Part shown: positions 33,959 to 57,096 of the stretch, piece by piece
Layout: every line of letters starts with the position of its first letter
Numbering within the stretch: position 1 is the stretch's first letter
Made by a program: the position numbers and the translations under genes
DNA from: Escherichia phage ECD7
Length of the DNA stretch: 64,000 nt
Sequence record: NC_041936.1
Direction: 5' to 3' (one strand)
Notes under the pieces: model-generated
Told to the model about the DNA's origin: nothing
The model's input: only the letters and a program-made list of their open reading frames with translations
Database searches by the model: none

Positions 33959-34462
33959 TCAAATAATTTTCACTGGAATACTATTAACAATCTTGTATTG
34001 TACTTGATTGTCAGACCCCCGCCACGGCTTCTTCGTTGGCATATCTTTAATATAACGCCCATCGATGAACATGTCAACTGATTCTACAATTTTTCTTTGC
34101 TCATCATTCAATTGGTCAAGGGTATAACCGGACCATAGCCAAATATCTTTATTTGGCATCCATGATTTTACTTCATCGATGATCCGCTGTACACCCTTTA
34201 AATTGCGTTTATACAGTGGATCGCCACCTAAGAATGTTAGCCCCTGAATAAAATCAGGTCTAAGCAGATCCAGAATCAATCCCATTGTATCATCGGTGAA
34301 TGGTTCCCCGTTCTTAGGATTGAGTAGGCTAGCATTAAAGCAACCATCACATGCGTGTGAACATCCGGTAACGTAAAGGGAGACTCTCACTCCCTCACCG
34401 TTAACCATATCACAATCTTTAATATCGGCATAGCGTAGTTTGCCGTATGTATCAGAACTCAT
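33959..34462 (-). CDS. nrdG: anaerobic ribonucleotide reductase activating protein NrdG (radical SAM)
   Basis: CSHACDGC (CxxxCxxC) cluster; ATG at 34460-34462. Confidence 0.85.
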   Translation of the reverse strand: MSSDTYGKLRYADIKDCDMVNGEGVRVSLYVTGCSHACDGCFNASLLNPKNGEPFTDDTMGLILDLLRPDFIQGLTFLGGDPLYKRNLKGVQRIIDEVKSWMPNKDIWLWSGYTLDQLNDEQRKIVESVDMFIDGRYIKDMPTKKPWRGSDNQVQYKIVNSIPVKII

Positions 34463-34604
34463 ATTCAATTACCCCGAACTCGTTTACAATCTGCGCTTTA
34501 TAGTAACCACCGCGAGATGCTAATAGATAAGCTGGGCTTAGGTATTCGTATTCACGGATTTCTACTTGTGCGTTTTCAGTTTCCCAAATCAGTAAAGTCC
34601 ACAT
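34452..34604 (-). CDS. hypothetical small protein
   Basis: Internal ATG (MWTLLIWE...) after AGGAGA; track ORF 34452..34679 runs through the promoter. Confidence 0.3.
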   Translation of the reverse strand: MWTLLIWETENAQVEIREYEYLSPAYLLASRGGYYKAQIVNEFGVIEYEF

Positions 34605-35870: not shown

Positions 35871-37733
35871 TTACATGTGCTTAACGCGGTTTACCATCTC
35901 GGAGTGTTTCCCGTGATTAAATGGACGCAGATCAACAGATCCAAGATATCCACTAACGCGACGGATAACATTCATCTTTTCCAGATTGTCATTGCCGCAA
36001 TCAGGACAAACAAAACCAGACTCGGTCGCTCTCATTTCCTTATTAGATCCGCATACATGACATACATCAGAAGGAGTATTAACACCGAAGTAGTGCAATT
36101 TATCCATTGCATAGTCTACTACAGTTTCAAGACCTTTCAGGTTGTTTTTCATGTCTGGGAACTCAACATAAGAGATCATGCCACCGGACGCCAGCCAGTG
36201 ATAATCTTTCTCAAAGTCGATTTTCTCAAATGGTGTGACTTTCCGGTCTACGTCAAGGTGGAATGAGTTGGTGTACCAGTCTTTATCGGTAGCACCCTTA
36301 ACAATACCAAATTGCTCTCTGTCCAGTCGATTAAATCGATAGCAAAGGCTCTCGGCTGGCGTACCGTAAAGACTAAACCCAAGTCCGGTTTCATCCTTCC
36401 ATTTTTCAGTATAATGACGCAAGATCTTAAGAATATGTTTACCGTATCGCTGCGCATCTTCCGAATCAAACGGATGAACACCAAACAGGACGCTCAATAC
36501 CTCATGTAAACCAATATATCCAAGAGAGATACTAGCGCGACCATCTTTCAGAACTTCCAAAATTTCATCGTTTTGATGAATACGGAAAAATGCACCTTCG
36601 GTATACAGCACCGGAGCAACATTGGCTTTAGCACCTTTTAAAGCGTCTACGCGACTCATGAGAGCATCAAAGCAAATAGGCAGACGATTAGCTAGCTCTT
36701 GTTCGAATAGCTCAATTCTGCGCATTACAGACGCTTTACCAGCACGACGCGCGGCAATAAGAGCAATACGCGGAAGATTCAGAGTCACAACACCCAAGTT
36801 ATTGCGTCCGTCTAATACTTCCTCGCCTTTCTCATTATGCCACACACCCAGGAAGCTACGACAACCCATCGGGCTAACCGGAACACTAGATCCAGTGATA
36901 CTACGGTTATTCTTCGCAGAGATATAATCAGGGTAAAGACGCTTACTAGAACATTCCAATGCAAGTTGCTTAATGTCGTAGTTCGGATCTTCCGGTTTAA
37001 GGTTTAATCCTTCTTCTAAGAACATCACCAGCTTAGGAAACACCGGAGTGATACCATCTTTACCTAAACCTTTAGTTCGAACGTTCAGGATCGCTTTCTG
37101 AATCAGTTTTTCTTCCCAGCTAGTACCCATACCAAAGGTTAAAGTCACAAAAGGCGTTTGACCGTTGGTGGAGAACAAAGTGTTGATTTCATATTCCAAC
37201 GCTTGATACCCGTCTAAAGTTTCTTTTTCTGTCTTCTCTTGTGCATAGAGAGTATCAGCTTTGATTCCGTAGGTTTCGGCATCAGCAAGGTGTTTATGAT
37301 ATGTTTTCTCAACATACGGTGCTAACACCTGATCGATGTTTGCGATTGTGGTCCCGCCATATTGATGACTTGCCACCTGTGCGATAATTTGAGCGGTTAC
37401 AGCACAAGCAACGCCGATCGATTTCGGACTTTCGATTTGTGCGCTACCCAATTTAAAACCATTCTCTAACATGTCTTTGAGATTAACAAGACAGCAGTTA
37501 GTAAACGGCATAGCGGGTGCATAATCCATATCATGATAATGAATATCACCGTCTACATGCGCTTTATAGATGTGCTCAGGTAACACGGTTTTAGCAATCT
37601 GTTTAGACACAGCACCAGCAATCAGATCTCGACGTGTCGGGAATGTTCGCGCGTCTTTGTTCGCGTTCTCTTTGCTTACTTCGTTTTCTTTACCCGTTGC
37701 GATCTCTGTAATGTCTTTGATTAGTTTTTCCAT
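35871..37733 (-). CDS. nrdD: anaerobic ribonucleoside-triphosphate reductase NrdD (glycyl radical enzyme), uninterrupted
   Basis: 620 aa; C-terminal Cys cluster CHVCG...CPDCG and glycyl-radical region; no intron. Confidence 0.93.
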   Translation of the reverse strand: MEKLIKDITEIATGKENEVSKENANKDARTFPTRRDLIAGAVSKQIAKTVLPEHIYKAHVDGDIHYHDMDYAPAMPFTNCCLVNLKDMLENGFKLGSAQIESPKSIGVACAVTAQIIAQVASHQYGGTTIANIDQVLAPYVEKTYHKHLADAETYGIKADTLYAQEKTEKETLDGYQALEYEINTLFSTNGQTPFVTLTFGMGTSWEEKLIQKAILNVRTKGLGKDGITPVFPKLVMFLEEGLNLKPEDPNYDIKQLALECSSKRLYPDYISAKNNRSITGSSVPVSPMGCRSFLGVWHNEKGEEVLDGRNNLGVVTLNLPRIALIAARRAGKASVMRRIELFEQELANRLPICFDALMSRVDALKGAKANVAPVLYTEGAFFRIHQNDEILEVLKDGRASISLGYIGLHEVLSVLFGVHPFDSEDAQRYGKHILKILRHYTEKWKDETGLGFSLYGTPAESLCYRFNRLDREQFGIVKGATDKDWYTNSFHLDVDRKVTPFEKIDFEKDYHWLASGGMISYVEFPDMKNNLKGLETVVDYAMDKLHYFGVNTPSDVCHVCGSNKEMRATESGFVCPDCGNDNLEKMNVIRRVSGYLGSVDLRPFNHGKHSEMVNRVKHM

Positions 37734-53338: not shown

Positions 53339-53674
53339 TTATCCTTTCTTAAACAAATTGCGAATCCAGTATACAAACGGGATCTCTTTAAACTTGAATT
53401 TCTCTATAGTTAATTCTTTAGTAGCAAGATGAATACCATAAGCATCATGTGTCACGATATGCCATTTTCTATAGTCCAAATGTGAACAACCGTCTGGATC
53501 TAGGTTAATAAGAGTTTCTCGCTCACTAGGATTATTTTTCCACAATTTTGTAATAGGATCGCACATAATTCGACCTAGCGTACCATGAATAATCTCACAA
53601 CGGTAAAGTTTTCCAGCAGTGAGATAGGCGCACCCGTCATAGTCGGTATAAACAAACACTTCTTTAACACTCAT
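53339..53674 (-). CDS. small paralog-family protein (GC[SA]HL..W motif)
   Basis: Internal ATG with GGAGTA SD; ...DPDGCSHLDYRKWHIV. Confidence 0.45.
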   Translation of the reverse strand: MSVKEVFVYTDYDGCAYLTAGKLYRCEIIHGTLGRIMCDPITKLWKNNPSERETLINLDPDGCSHLDYRKWHIVTHDAYGIHLATKELTIEKFKFKEIPFVYWIRNLFKKG

Positions 53675-53696
53675 TTTAATACTCCTTTGTTTCGAT

Positions 53697-53732
53697 GGGG
53701 GTATATTACTACCCCCGTTTTGTTGTGTCAAC
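53697..53732 (-). promoter_or_regulatory. sigma70-type early promoter (PeSL-like, GGGGGTA stem-loop)
   Basis: Minus: TTGACA-17nt-TAATAT. Confidence 0.55.
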
Positions 53733-53992
53733 TACTTTTTCAAGATTTTTTTAATTGCGTTCCAAAGACCTTTATTCTCAGGTTGTTTTGGTTCTTCGAT
53801 CAGTGTCCATGTTCGACCGTCTAAGTGTGCACAATTTTTAAGACAAATAAAAATCTGGTGTCCATTATCATCACGGATATAACCACTATTCGCAAATCTT
53901 TCATGTGGTGTATATTCATACAGTGTATTTGGTGTAATATACTTGCGGTTACTATAAGGTGTCATTACATATTTCATGGTACTAACTCCCAT
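53732..53992 (-). CDS. small paralog-family protein
   Basis: ...CLKNCAHLDGRTWTLIEEP. Confidence 0.45.
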   Translation of the reverse strand: MGVSTMKYVMTPYSNRKYITPNTLYEYTPHERFANSGYIRDDNGHQIFICLKNCAHLDGRTWTLIEEPKQPENKGLWNAIKKILKK

Positions 53993-54168
53993 TTATCACC
54001 GCGAAGATGAGAACATCCACCATCAAGAAGGATCGTAATACGAAACCCCGCATCATCTTCAATATACCCGATTGTCGGTGGATTTTCGTCGTCTCGTGCC
54101 GGGGTAAAATCATACATCTTTCCCGGTGTGATATCATTGCCTTTATTGCTATTGGTATAAACTTGCAT
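53974..54168 (-). CDS. small paralog-family protein
   Basis: ...LLDGGCSHLRGDKWELVP. Confidence 0.45.
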   Translation of the reverse strand: MQVYTNSNKGNDITPGKMYDFTPARDDENPPTIGYIEDDAGFRITILLDGGCSHLRGDKWELVP

Positions 54169-54189
54169 TTTCTTAATCTCCTATATTAA

Positions 54190-54888
54190 CTAACCACGGG
54201 TATAGTGTTCCAGAACAACTGTCAGATGAATATATTCTAATAGATCTTTCCAAAAGTCAACATCTGGTTCTTCCGGCATACCGTTTTTCTTTGCCTCTTC
54301 ACGCGCGAGTTTAACACGCTCGTAGAGGTCTTTCAATTCTTCCCGCACATTATCAAATGTTCTTTCTCCTAACTTACACGCTAAAATCGAAGAACGTCGT
54401 GCGAGCGGGAATTGTAGATCACCTGTCTGGTAGATTTCAAGTAGCTGATAACCAACACGCAGAGCATGAGAAAGATCTTTCCAGTTACTGAAATACTTTT
54501 CCGATTTGGCTACCTGTTTCTTGAGATAACCAGACAAACCCCACATACCAACATGATAGAATTTATCGCGATGTGTTCGGATGTATTCCCATTCTCTGGA
54601 GGATTCGATCAACATGTTACTAGGCGCGTGCACCATGTCAATAGCGCCGATATCGCCTTTACATGCCAGATTGATAAACCGTTTTAGACTGAACATATTA
54701 ACGTCAATATCGTCTTTGGTGTTCTTGATCCCTTGACCGCTAGTGCTTTGATCATAGTGTTCTTTCATCGATCCTAAGATAATTTCTTTCGCAGTCGGAA
54801 CAAAGATACCACGATAATCTTTATCTGAATTTTCAGTATCAAGGCCGTATAAGTGAGATCCGAAGACCATTTTAACCATTGTATGCAT
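54190..54888 (-). CDS. Pol-beta superfamily nucleotidyltransferase, unknown substrate
   Basis: FGSHLYGLDTENSDKDY fits the G[GS]x9-13DxD NTase motif; 232 aa. Confidence 0.6.
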   Translation of the reverse strand: MHTMVKMVFGSHLYGLDTENSDKDYRGIFVPTAKEIILGSMKEHYDQSTSGQGIKNTKDDIDVNMFSLKRFINLACKGDIGAIDMVHAPSNMLIESSREWEYIRTHRDKFYHVGMWGLSGYLKKQVAKSEKYFSNWKDLSHALRVGYQLLEIYQTGDLQFPLARRSSILACKLGERTFDNVREELKDLYERVKLAREEAKKNGMPEEPDVDFWKDLLEYIHLTVVLEHYTRG

Positions 54889-54933
54889 AATTAAACCCTC
54901 AGTTGATTAAGAGATTGCATCATATCATCATAA

Positions 54934-54963
54934 AACGAAAAAGCCAACCCTTTTCGGATTGGC
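54934..54963 (-). terminator. intrinsic terminator after the GrcA-like gene
   Basis: Minus: GCCAAUCC-gaaaag-GGUUGGC then UUUUUCGUUUU. Confidence 0.6.
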
Positions 54964-54974
54964 TTGATGAAAAA

Positions 54975-55391
54975 TTAGAGAGATTCGGTAAAGGTACGCG
55001 CGATAACGTCACGCTGCTGGTCTGGAGTCAGACTATTGAAGCGCACTGCGTAACCAGAAACGCGAATTGTAAGCTGCGGGTACTTCTCAGGATGTTCAAC
55101 AGCGTCCAGCAACATTTCTCGTAACAATACGTTAACATTCAAATGCTGACCACCTTCGACAACCGGAGCACCATTATCTACAATGACAGGACGGAAGCTA
55201 GTTGTGTGCAGTGCCAGCGAATCGACGTCTTCTGCGGTGATCACATGGTCTTCTGCGAAAGTTTTACTAACAATTACTTTAGCGCCGATCAGTGCTTTCG
55301 GTTCGGATACCAGAATCATAGGCGCGAAGTGTCCACCAATAATAGTACCTTTATGCTCACCTTTCATGATTTGAATTGCTTTAAATTCCAT
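54975..55391 (-). CDS. autonomous glycyl radical cofactor (GrcA/YfiD-like)
   Basis: C-terminal [12 protein letters not shown]...[34 protein letters not shown] nearly identical to enterobacterial GrcA. Confidence 0.85.
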
Positions 55392-55526
55392 AATTCACCT
55401 CTTATAGATCAGGACGTTCGTCATTAATTTTACCAACCAAAACACCATAGAGTTTATCAGGTTGGATTTTACGATTCTTTTTAATTGTAGCACGAAATCG
55501 ACGAGCTACGCTATCTTTATTTTTCA

Positions 55527-56012
55527 TTAGTTGATACCTAAGCCAATGAAAATAGGTTGGTCTTCTACACTACCCCTTCCAACACTAAATCGATTTACTT
55601 CTAAAAACTGCAATACGCTGTCAGTAAATCCGCGCATGGTAGTATCTAGGATAAAAATTGTTTTGTCAAGACTACGACCTCGCCAAGTGATCGGATTCAG
55701 GAAAGTTCGGATAGACGTACAATCTACATTTGAAATATTTACATTTTCACCGCGACCGCGATCTCGGATCGTTTTGGCATGTTCCCGCGTCGTTGAAACG
55801 ATAAAGACACTATAGCCTTTTCTAGTATAATGGTCATATAACTTGATTGTAGCGTCTGTATGCCCTGTCTGACGTCCTAAATTGATTGAGACGATGGAAT
55901 CTAGGTCATCAGCAAAATTGCGTCGCTTACGGCGTTCTATGATGCCATTTACGGCAGAAATACACGCAGCATAAATCAAATCTTTACTTTCTAATTTTAC
56001 ATCAATATTCAT
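55527..56012 (-). CDS. hypothetical protein
   Basis: 161-aa ORF preceded by a 9-bp stem 5'UTR hairpin (56030-56060). Confidence 0.45.
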   Translation of the reverse strand: MNIDVKLESKDLIYAACISAVNGIIERRKRRNFADDLDSIVSINLGRQTGHTDATIKLYDHYTRKGYSVFIVSTTREHAKTIRDRGRGENVNISNVDCTSIRTFLNPITWRGRSLDKTIFILDTTMRGFTDSVLQFLEVNRFSVGRGSVEDQPIFIGLGIN

Positions 56013-56074
56013 GGTAAAGTCTCCAGTGAACGGGGAGAGATCCTTAGATTGTCTCCCCGTTGATGGTTAATATT

Positions 56075-56464
56075 TTATTTTGGATCTGGGTATTTGCTGT
56101 GTGGTAGCTGAAAATGAACACCGTCTTTAAACGATACCCAATCCCCACCCCATTCAACAGAAACACCCAATTCTCGACCAGCTTGTTTAAATGCATCCGC
56201 GATCATGCGGTAGTATTTCATGTTCCATGTATCCTTATCTTTCGGATACGCTACAACGTCAACCGCTAAACCGTGAAGATGACGAGATTTCATAGTCTTA
56301 GATTTACCTTCCGCAACATATTTCTTTTGCGTTTCTAGACTACGTACACCTTCCGTAATACCAAAATCGACCGGAGTCAGTTCTAATGCACGATGAACGA
56401 CTTTTACCAGATCAGGATGCACACCAACAAGCCGATCTTTGCTTCTTTGAGATAATTTAAACAT
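56075..56464 (-). CDS. endolysin, L-alanyl-D-glutamate peptidase (peptidase M15-like)
   Basis: SRHLHGLAVDV and DGVHFQL zinc-ligand motifs; 129 aa; occupies the T4 e (lysozyme) neighbourhood. Confidence 0.8.
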   Translation of the reverse strand: MFKLSQRSKDRLVGVHPDLVKVVHRALELTPVDFGITEGVRSLETQKKYVAEGKSKTMKSRHLHGLAVDVVAYPKDKDTWNMKYYRMIADAFKQAGRELGVSVEWGGDWVSFKDGVHFQLPHSKYPDPK

Positions 56465-56493
56465 TATTCACCCCCCTTTGTGAGTGATAATAT

Positions 56494-56685
56494 TTAGATT
56501 CCGGCGATCCTGCATATAGTTCTTGTATTAGCACCAATCAGGATCGCATTAACGACAACCATTCCCCAATCAACCCACTGATTATTATAAATGCTAAACC
56601 CGTTTGCAAGACCAAATACAAGCATTCCGGTACACATACTCAGAGCAATAATCAACATCACGGTAAAACCAAATGCAAATCTCAT
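56494..56685 (-). CDS. small hydrophobic membrane protein
   Basis: 63 aa, mostly hydrophobic. Confidence 0.4.
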   Translation of the reverse strand: MRFAFGFTVMLIIALSMCTGMLVFGLANGFSIYNNQWVDWGMVVVNAILIGANTRTICRIAGI

Positions 56686-56686
56686 A

Positions 56687-56953
56687 TTATTTTCCTTTTC
56701 TCTGTTTACGTTTATAAAAGTAATACATTACCTCATCGCGTCCGGTGATCCAACATGCTAGGGCGGTAAACAGGTTTACAATTCCCAACACACCTACGGA
56801 TGCGGCGCTGTCAACAGACATAGGAACAGTAAAGGCCATAGCTAACATAGCAACGCCACAAATGACATTAAGCACCATTATAATAAGACCGAAGAAAACC
56901 ATTGTCAATCCTCCCAAATAAGAAAACCAACAATCACGCCAGTGATAAGACAT
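56687..56953 (-). CDS. small hydrophobic membrane protein
   Basis: 88 aa, two hydrophobic helices. Confidence 0.4.
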   Translation of the reverse strand: MSYHWRDCWFSYLGGLTMVFFGLIIMVLNVICGVAMLAMAFTVPMSVDSAASVGVLGIVNLFTALACWITGRDEVMYYFYKRKQRKGK

Positions 56954-57096
56954 GATGCGCCGCTAATAAGACAACCCGCGCCAAGTGATTCCCACCAGAT
57001 CAGAGAAGCGACAATAACACAGAATCCCCATACTACCGCAATCACAACATAGGCAAGGGTCGCCCAAAACATATATTTGTTCATAATAAATCCCAT
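56905..57096 (-). CDS. small hydrophobic membrane protein
   Basis: 63 aa. Confidence 0.35.
   Translation of the reverse strand: MGFIMNKYMFWATLAYVVIAVVWGFCVIVASLIWWESLGAGCLISGASCLITGVIVGFLIWED

Follow-up and report, generated by a model that had tools for sequence, protein, structure and literature searches.

Escherichia coli YfiD (GrcA) and the bacteriophage T4 protein Y06I take a glycyl radical from the pyruvate formate-lyase (PFL)-activating enzyme and reactivate in vitro PFL that has been cut by oxygen at Gly734 (Wagner et al. 2001, as cited in PMC8683613). These two are still the only validated spare-part proteins (PMC8683613). In vivo, the formate production of a PflB G734A strain is restored by GrcA. 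The N-terminal ~60 residues of YfiD are disordered by NMR, yet this region is important both for the binding of cleaved PFL and for radical installation, and the activase acts poorly on free YfiD as long as the latter is not docked on cleaved PFL (PMC8683613).

The gene vs.6 of T4 (NP_049730) is annotated "autonomous glycyl radical cofactor GrcA". Since each T-even record yields a single tblastn match among the matches listed, we infer that T4 vs.6 encodes the Y06I of the biochemical literature. The first-pass annotation of the DNA examined here had stated that a T4 homologue of YfiD was reported; both the T4 annotation and the reconstitution of oxygen-fragmented PFL by Y06I (Wagner et al. 2001, as cited in PMC8683613) bear this out.

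Here, we describe a computational analysis of the corresponding gene in a 64,000-nucleotide stretch of the genome of Escherichia phage ECD7 (NC_041936.1), referred to below as the window. The gene, its family and the phage genus are all known and already catalogued. We consider it probable, at roughly 0.85, that the vs.6 product is a spare part that replaces the oxygen-broken radical tip of PFL, and that its near-identity to the host sequence is kept by selection.

The vs.6 gene and its product

The vs.6 coding sequence lies on the minus strand at 54975..55391 and comprises 138 codons and a stop, from ATG to TAA; the computed mass and pI of its product are 15.2 kDa and 5.8. A strong Shine-Dalgarno sequence, AAGAGGTG (55396..55403, minus strand), is located 4 nt upstream of the ATG. 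Ten nucleotides past the stop codon is an intrinsic terminator-like hairpin (54941..54965, minus strand) with a 10 bp stem followed by a T-run, and a terminator is annotated at the equivalent place in related phage records. This hairpin ends the transcription unit of vs.8, a 41-aa ORF and vs.6, before nrdC.11. The gene is a complete, stand-alone ORF with its own Shine-Dalgarno sequence, start, stop and terminator, and not part of a gene for a full-length glycyl radical enzyme.

The stop codon of vs.8 (55527-56012, minus strand; PHROG 1488, with no Pfam domain) overlaps the start of the conserved 41-aa ORF (55402-55527, minus strand; PHROG 13848), the stop codon of which falls in turn inside the vs.6 Shine-Dalgarno sequence. 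Probably, vs.8, the 41-aa ORF and vs.6 are co-transcribed and translationally coupled. A promoter scan gave only generic sigma-70-like matches (14 versus 7.4 expected), and no promoter was assigned. An Rfam E-value scan of 53500-57000 gave a single sub-threshold chance match, to NRON (17.8 bits against a gathering score of 50). Three plus-strand antisense ORFs, at 54903-55124, 55143-55427 and 55183-55374, were treated as shadows of the vs.6 coding frame.

At the DNA level vs.6 shares 99.8% identity with its counterparts in Escherichia phage vB_EcoM_G5211 and in an assembly of Krischvirus RB49; identity to the RB49 reference, in which the gene is named vs.6, is 98.6%. The protein is 100% identical to an entry of phage Skers labelled "putative autonomous glycyl radical cofactor", and it matches PHROG 1209 over its full length (E=3.4e-51, residues 3-138 against profile positions 1-121 of 121). 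Orthologues are annotated as vs.6 in RB49, Phi1, JSE and Aeromonas phage 31, and identity to T2 vs.6 is 59% over the full length. Upstream of vs.6 lie a peptidase_M15 endolysin gene, vs.8 and the 41-aa ORF, and downstream nrdC.11, regB, vs.1, vs, tk.4 and tk, in the same gene order as in T4. These comparisons identify the gene as the vs.6 orthologue carried by a Krischvirus, an RB49-like coliphage. The hosts of the near-identical phages are E. coli and Shigella. GrcA-type homologues were found by tblastn in 1,579 phage records, among them T4-like Straboviridae of Escherichia, Salmonella, Klebsiella, Aeromonas and Vibrio, T5-like phages, and an Erwinia jumbo phage. The downstream neighbor nrdC.11 (54190-54888, minus strand) encodes an RlaP-type nucleotidyltransferase of the RNA-repair-pathway, DNA polymerase beta family (PF10127, E=3.4e-14) and is unrelated to the glycyl-radical finding.

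The product has a two-part architecture. Codons 78-138 (54978..55160, minus strand), ending in TFTESL, form a glycyl-radical cassette that is delimited by PF01228 and by alignments. Its 61 residues are identical at 56 positions to the C-terminus of E. coli K-12 GrcA, and at 50 positions each to those of PflB and TdcE. Residues 78-119 match the Pfam Gly_radical model (PF01228) with 61.3 bits, the gathering cut-off being 22.2. The best PDB sequence matches in phmmer, which lie far outside chance, are 6owr (GrcA/YfiD, E=5.8e-33) and then PflB (5.5e-27), and BLASTP against GrcA gives 66% identity across residues 37-138. The first-pass annotation had proposed a phage-encoded GrcA/YfiD-like protein with a C-terminus nearly identical to the enterobacterial one. 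The matches in Pfam, NCBIfam and PDB sequences, together with Foldseek, agree with that assignment in what is a Krischvirus genome, and the BLASTP identity is not low; the near-identity, however, holds for the C-terminus only. The C-terminal residues quoted in that annotation match the translation, with D124 at the position written there as a dot.

The radical motif RVSGYAV is intact at residues 110-116. RVSGYAV is also the minimal peptide substrate sequence used in work on the PFL-activating enzyme. Within it, Gly113 (codon 55053..55055, minus strand), the predicted radical glycine, corresponds to GrcA Gly102 and PflB Gly734 in the motif alignment, and residues 77-138 align without gaps to PflB 698-759, the Gly734 loop included. 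At three of the five cassette positions that differ from GrcA (M93, L95 and E99) the phage protein carries the PflB/TdcE residue, so that 59 of the 61 positions hold a residue of E. coli GrcA or PflB; L90 and D124 alone are found in neither GrcA nor PflB/TdcE.

The AF2 model, built from 80 homologues, has a mean pLDDT of 79.6, rising to about 90 for residues 91-130. In the cassette it predicts a helix (91-99), a hairpin (108-111/114-117) with the glycine at its tip, and a second helix (123-133), in agreement with 6owr and 2pfl. The top Foldseek matches in the PDB are 6owr, the NMR structure of YfiD (E=1.3e-6), and E. coli PFL (1cm5/2pfl). Like E. coli GrcA (6owr), the phage protein is small and stands alone, carries RVSGYAV and is predicted to share the C-terminal fold (60 aligned residues, 92% identity). 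It differs from GrcA in its N-terminal half, which is 11 aa longer, in the three PflB-like cassette residues, and in being encoded by a virulent phage without host regulation. In contrast to complete PflB (2pfl/1h16) and TdcE, it has neither the catalytic barrel nor the active-site cysteines and, as a domain on its own, depends on clipped PFL for any activity.

Codons 1-77 (55161..55391, minus strand) encode a Krischvirus-specific region that is only weakly GrcA-like in alignments and exceeds its counterparts in GrcA and T4 vs.6 by about 10-18 aa. Over residues 1-69, 15 of 69 positions are identical to GrcA, and the HMMER and BLASTP alignments to GrcA reach back to residue 37 (GrcA residue 29). 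The short motifs KAIQI and G-HKGTI are common to this region, GrcA and T4 vs.6. Among close homologues of the Krischvirus clade the same 69 residues are almost unchanged (62-69 of 69 identical). T4 vs.6 shares with the window gene its neighborhood, two-part architecture and radical cassette (54 of 61 residues identical), and the N-terminal motifs KA-QI..G.HKGTI and A+.IVSKTF.ED also occur here. The T4 protein has 120 aa, and GrcA and T4 vs.6 span 120-127 aa, whereas the window protein reaches 138 aa through two insertions in its N-terminal half. In the AF2 model this half forms four short strands in a small sheet, with pLDDT of about 57-86. Because the corresponding region of YfiD controls docking and activation, the phage protein may behave differently here. 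With an N-terminus that is divergent, longer and predicted to be partly structured, its binding and activation kinetics could differ from those of GrcA, and the Krischvirus N-terminal half may have a role in docking on cleaved PFL.

The divergence of this half is also reflected in family scores. The top NCBIfam model is GrcA, TIGR04365 (E=3.9e-39), and at 133.8 bits the protein does not reach the curated equivalog cut-off of 170. None of the six phage homologues scored, the window protein among them, attains this value (T2 vs.6, 153.3; Miro, 149.6; Aeromonas phage 31, 145.7; a T5-like phage, 120.2; JK32, 113.7), as against 234 for E. coli GrcA. We attribute the shortfall to the divergent N-terminal half, the model being tuned to bacterial N-termini; since the validated T4-type protein also falls below the cut-off, the shortfall does not exclude function. 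The GrcA2 and GrcA3 families (NF008341 and NF038360; ~80 aa) share the radical cassette, which scores 106 and 85 bits, respectively. They lack the N-terminal half, and the window protein is below both cut-offs.

Constraint and exchange in the cassette

The near-identity to GrcA had been ascribed beforehand either to recent acquisition or to strong constraint to pair with the host PFL. Recent horizontal capture of the 3' half from E. coli grcA or pflB would by itself account for a protein identity of 56/61, and such a mechanism does operate in the T-even phages, where the T4 and T2 cassettes are 97.3% and 96.7% nucleotide-identical to E. coli K-12 grcA. The GC3 of the window cassette (0.475, from 61 codons only) is also slightly above the phage mean of 0.379. 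The DNA argues otherwise. Over its 183 nt (54978-55160), the cassette is 74.9% identical to grcA, 75.4% to pflB and 72.1% to tdcE of E. coli. Against grcA, pS is 0.77, which is saturated, and pN is 0.083 (Nei-Gojobori); third codon positions are identical at 28 of 61 sites, the same codon is used at 24 of the 56 conserved residues, and each of the two serine codons has changed family (AGY versus TCN). Exact matches extend over at most 11 nt with grcA and 16 nt with pflB. The first-pass annotation had suggested a comparison of codon usage with flanking phage genes; the whole-gene GC3 of 0.417 lies inside the spread (0.379 +/- 0.043) seen for 57 long ORFs in the window. In a scan for bacterial donors that used one genome per species, no locus among the best 80 carrying small grcA-type or full-length PFL genes exceeded 77.6% nucleotide identity to the cassette. 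A megablast search of E. coli grcA against all phage records matched 753 records, with no Krischvirus in the organism tally or among the matches listed. On nucleotide identity, pS/pN, codon identity, exact run and GC3, recent capture from E. coli was rejected, and we regard it as highly improbable.

The saturated synonymous sites, the low DNA identity and the lack of a closer bacterial copy among the 80 loci indicate instead that the likeness of the cassette is old and has been held by purifying selection. Such selection would be expected, since the cassette must fit both the host PflB and the host PflA. Thus, of the two origins put forward for the closeness to GrcA in this phage, strong constraint stands and recent acquisition does not, as judged from these comparisons.

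The T-even phages present a different picture. The T2 cassette differs from grcA with a pS of only 0.11, shares the same codon at 55 of 60 conserved residues and contains a 131-nt exact run. T-even identity to grcA begins at grcA nt 200, the start of the radical domain, and stops 3 nt beyond the stop codon, a stretch of ~188 nt. In T2 vs.6, GC3 is 0.19 for the 5' part and rises abruptly in the cassette to 0.44, exactly as in grcA. Cassettes with 95-99% identity to E. coli grcA occur in 605 phage records. These features indicate a very recent exchange of the T-even cassette with E. coli grcA, in contrast to the window cassette with its DNA identity of ~75%. The vs.6 family thus illustrates concisely how selection in one lineage and recent exchange in another can lead to mimicry of the same host protein.

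The closest bacterial cassette protein among the best 80 loci (58/61 identical) is encoded in NZ_JBQPOM010000029.1, labelled Vagococcus sp. WN89Y. This small GrcA carries the L95 and E99 variants, as does that of Klebsiella phage Miro, and its DNA is 74.9% identical to the window. A gammaproteobacterial-type grcA in an assembly labelled as a Firmicute could reflect mislabelling or contamination.

Proposed role in the infected cell

T4-like phages shut off host gene expression. This shutdown offers a reason for such a phage to bring its own copy of a host repair protein. In E. coli infected under anaerobic or microaerobic conditions, traces of O2 would cut active PflB at its radical Gly734. With a mass of 15 kDa and a cassette that reproduces the lost radical domain almost exactly, the phage protein would bind the clipped PflB, and the host activase PflA, a radical SAM enzyme, would install a radical on phage Gly113. 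[quoted passage not shown] Activation by PflA, binding to cleaved PflB and a benefit to the phage are steps that we infer by homology. Both host partners are at hand: all 5,426 of 5,426 complete E. coli genomes gave a match, the top one among the matches listed being pflB, and pflA adjoins pflB in E. coli. The searchable full-text literature on phage GrcA yielded no vs.6 mutant phenotype, only the 2001 biochemistry by way of citation.

The window also contains nrdD and nrdG, as the first-pass annotation had stated in pointing to anaerobic growth. The gene nrdD (35871..37733, minus strand) encodes a class III, anaerobic ribonucleotide reductase (Pfam NRDD, E=5.4e-175, plus Gly_radical) that is itself a glycyl radical enzyme, with RVSGY at residues 592-596. 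The gene for its radical-SAM activase, nrdG (33959..34468, minus strand; Pfam Fer4_12, E=2.4e-43), is annotated at the syntenic position in RB49. The two genes lie 17-21 kb from vs.6. In class III reductases of the T4/E. coli type, formate is the reductant (PMC4493059), which makes it plausible that PFL repair could support anaerobic dNTP synthesis by supplying formate. A functional coupling of vs.6 to NrdD/NrdG, in which PFL kept alive after the shut-off of host expression secures formate for the phage reductase, is a tentative idea that we hold to be somewhat unlikely; if it were true, vs.6 would belong to a series of phage functions that together supply dNTPs under anaerobic conditions. NrdD homologues occur in 2,911 phage records, and GrcA-type and NrdD genes are both present in T4-like phages, in 108-122-kb Salmonella/Escherichia phages (T5-like included) and in Vibrio phages. 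This overlap is compatible with coupling and is no test of it.

Other clients or activities of the protein can be weighed against the repair of host PFL. NrdD, too, is a glycyl radical enzyme cleaved by O2 at its glycine and its activase is encoded in the window, and a review speculates about spare parts for further glycyl radical enzymes; vs.6 might thus serve the phage's own reductase instead of host PFL. Against this, BLASTP of vs.6 against the window NrdD aligns only the pentapeptide RVSGY (E>1), as compared with 50/61 for PflB, and the NrdD radical domain has a zinc ribbon that vs.6 lacks. With RVSGY alone in common, an NrdD spare part was rejected and seems to us scarcely credible. It would also be very surprising if the protein were a decoy or modulator that redirects host fermentation or the use of SAM/flavodoxin, either by competing with PflB or GrcA for PflA or by sitting unproductively on cleaved PFL. 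Its divergent, longer N-terminus does sit in the region that governs binding and activation in YfiD, and alternative Krischvirus alleles alter otherwise conserved positions of the EGGQ strand. However, for a decoy there would be no need to keep the entire cassette, radical glycine included, under purifying selection, whereas all catalytically relevant cassette positions are conserved, 59 of 61 residues are those of the host, and the T4 orthologue restores activity in vitro (Wagner et al. 2001, as cited in PMC8683613). The range of clients may be broader than PflB, with TdcE, the 2-ketobutyrate/pyruvate formate-lyase, being rescued besides or instead of it. The cassette is as similar to TdcE as to PflB (50/61 each), and the three PflB-like substitutions are common to TdcE. 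TdcE is, however, a minor enzyme that is expressed conditionally, and we consider its rescue unlikely; it would be compatible with, and not opposed to, the replacement of the broken PFL radical tip that we favor.

Cassette swapping in Krischvirus

Within the Krischvirus clade, residues 78-138 are identical to those of the window protein at 39-50 of 61 positions, below the 56/61 that the latter shares with E. coli GrcA. Krischvirus vs.6 has a mosaic structure, with 98-100% identity across the genus in the first ~200 nt and replaced 3' cassettes of 60-74% nucleotide identity and 43-49 of 61 identical amino acids. The megablast matches of many genomes break at vs.6 nt 206. When JK32 is compared with the window (54889-55190 region), the DNA identity of 98-100% over the first ~200 nt of the gene falls to about 62% beyond this point. 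At the protein level, the variant cassettes of JK32, JSE and phiS match that of the window at 43, 49 and 43 of 61 residues, respectively.

A free-standing HNH/NUMOD4 endonuclease gene lies between vs.6 and nrdC.11 in all three variant genomes inspected (JK32, JSE and phiS), and at least two types of endonuclease are represented among the three insertions. Neither the window nor RB49 has an endonuclease at this site, and an 86-nt spacer between vs.6 and nrdC.11 holds the terminator. From this arrangement we may reasonably suppose that homing is directed at the conserved 3' end of vs.6, and that co-conversion brought in the variant cassettes. A swappable radical cassette beside a homing-endonuclease insertion site is relevant to intronless homing in T4-like phages. 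The JK32-type unit is present in 9 of 57 Krischvirus records.
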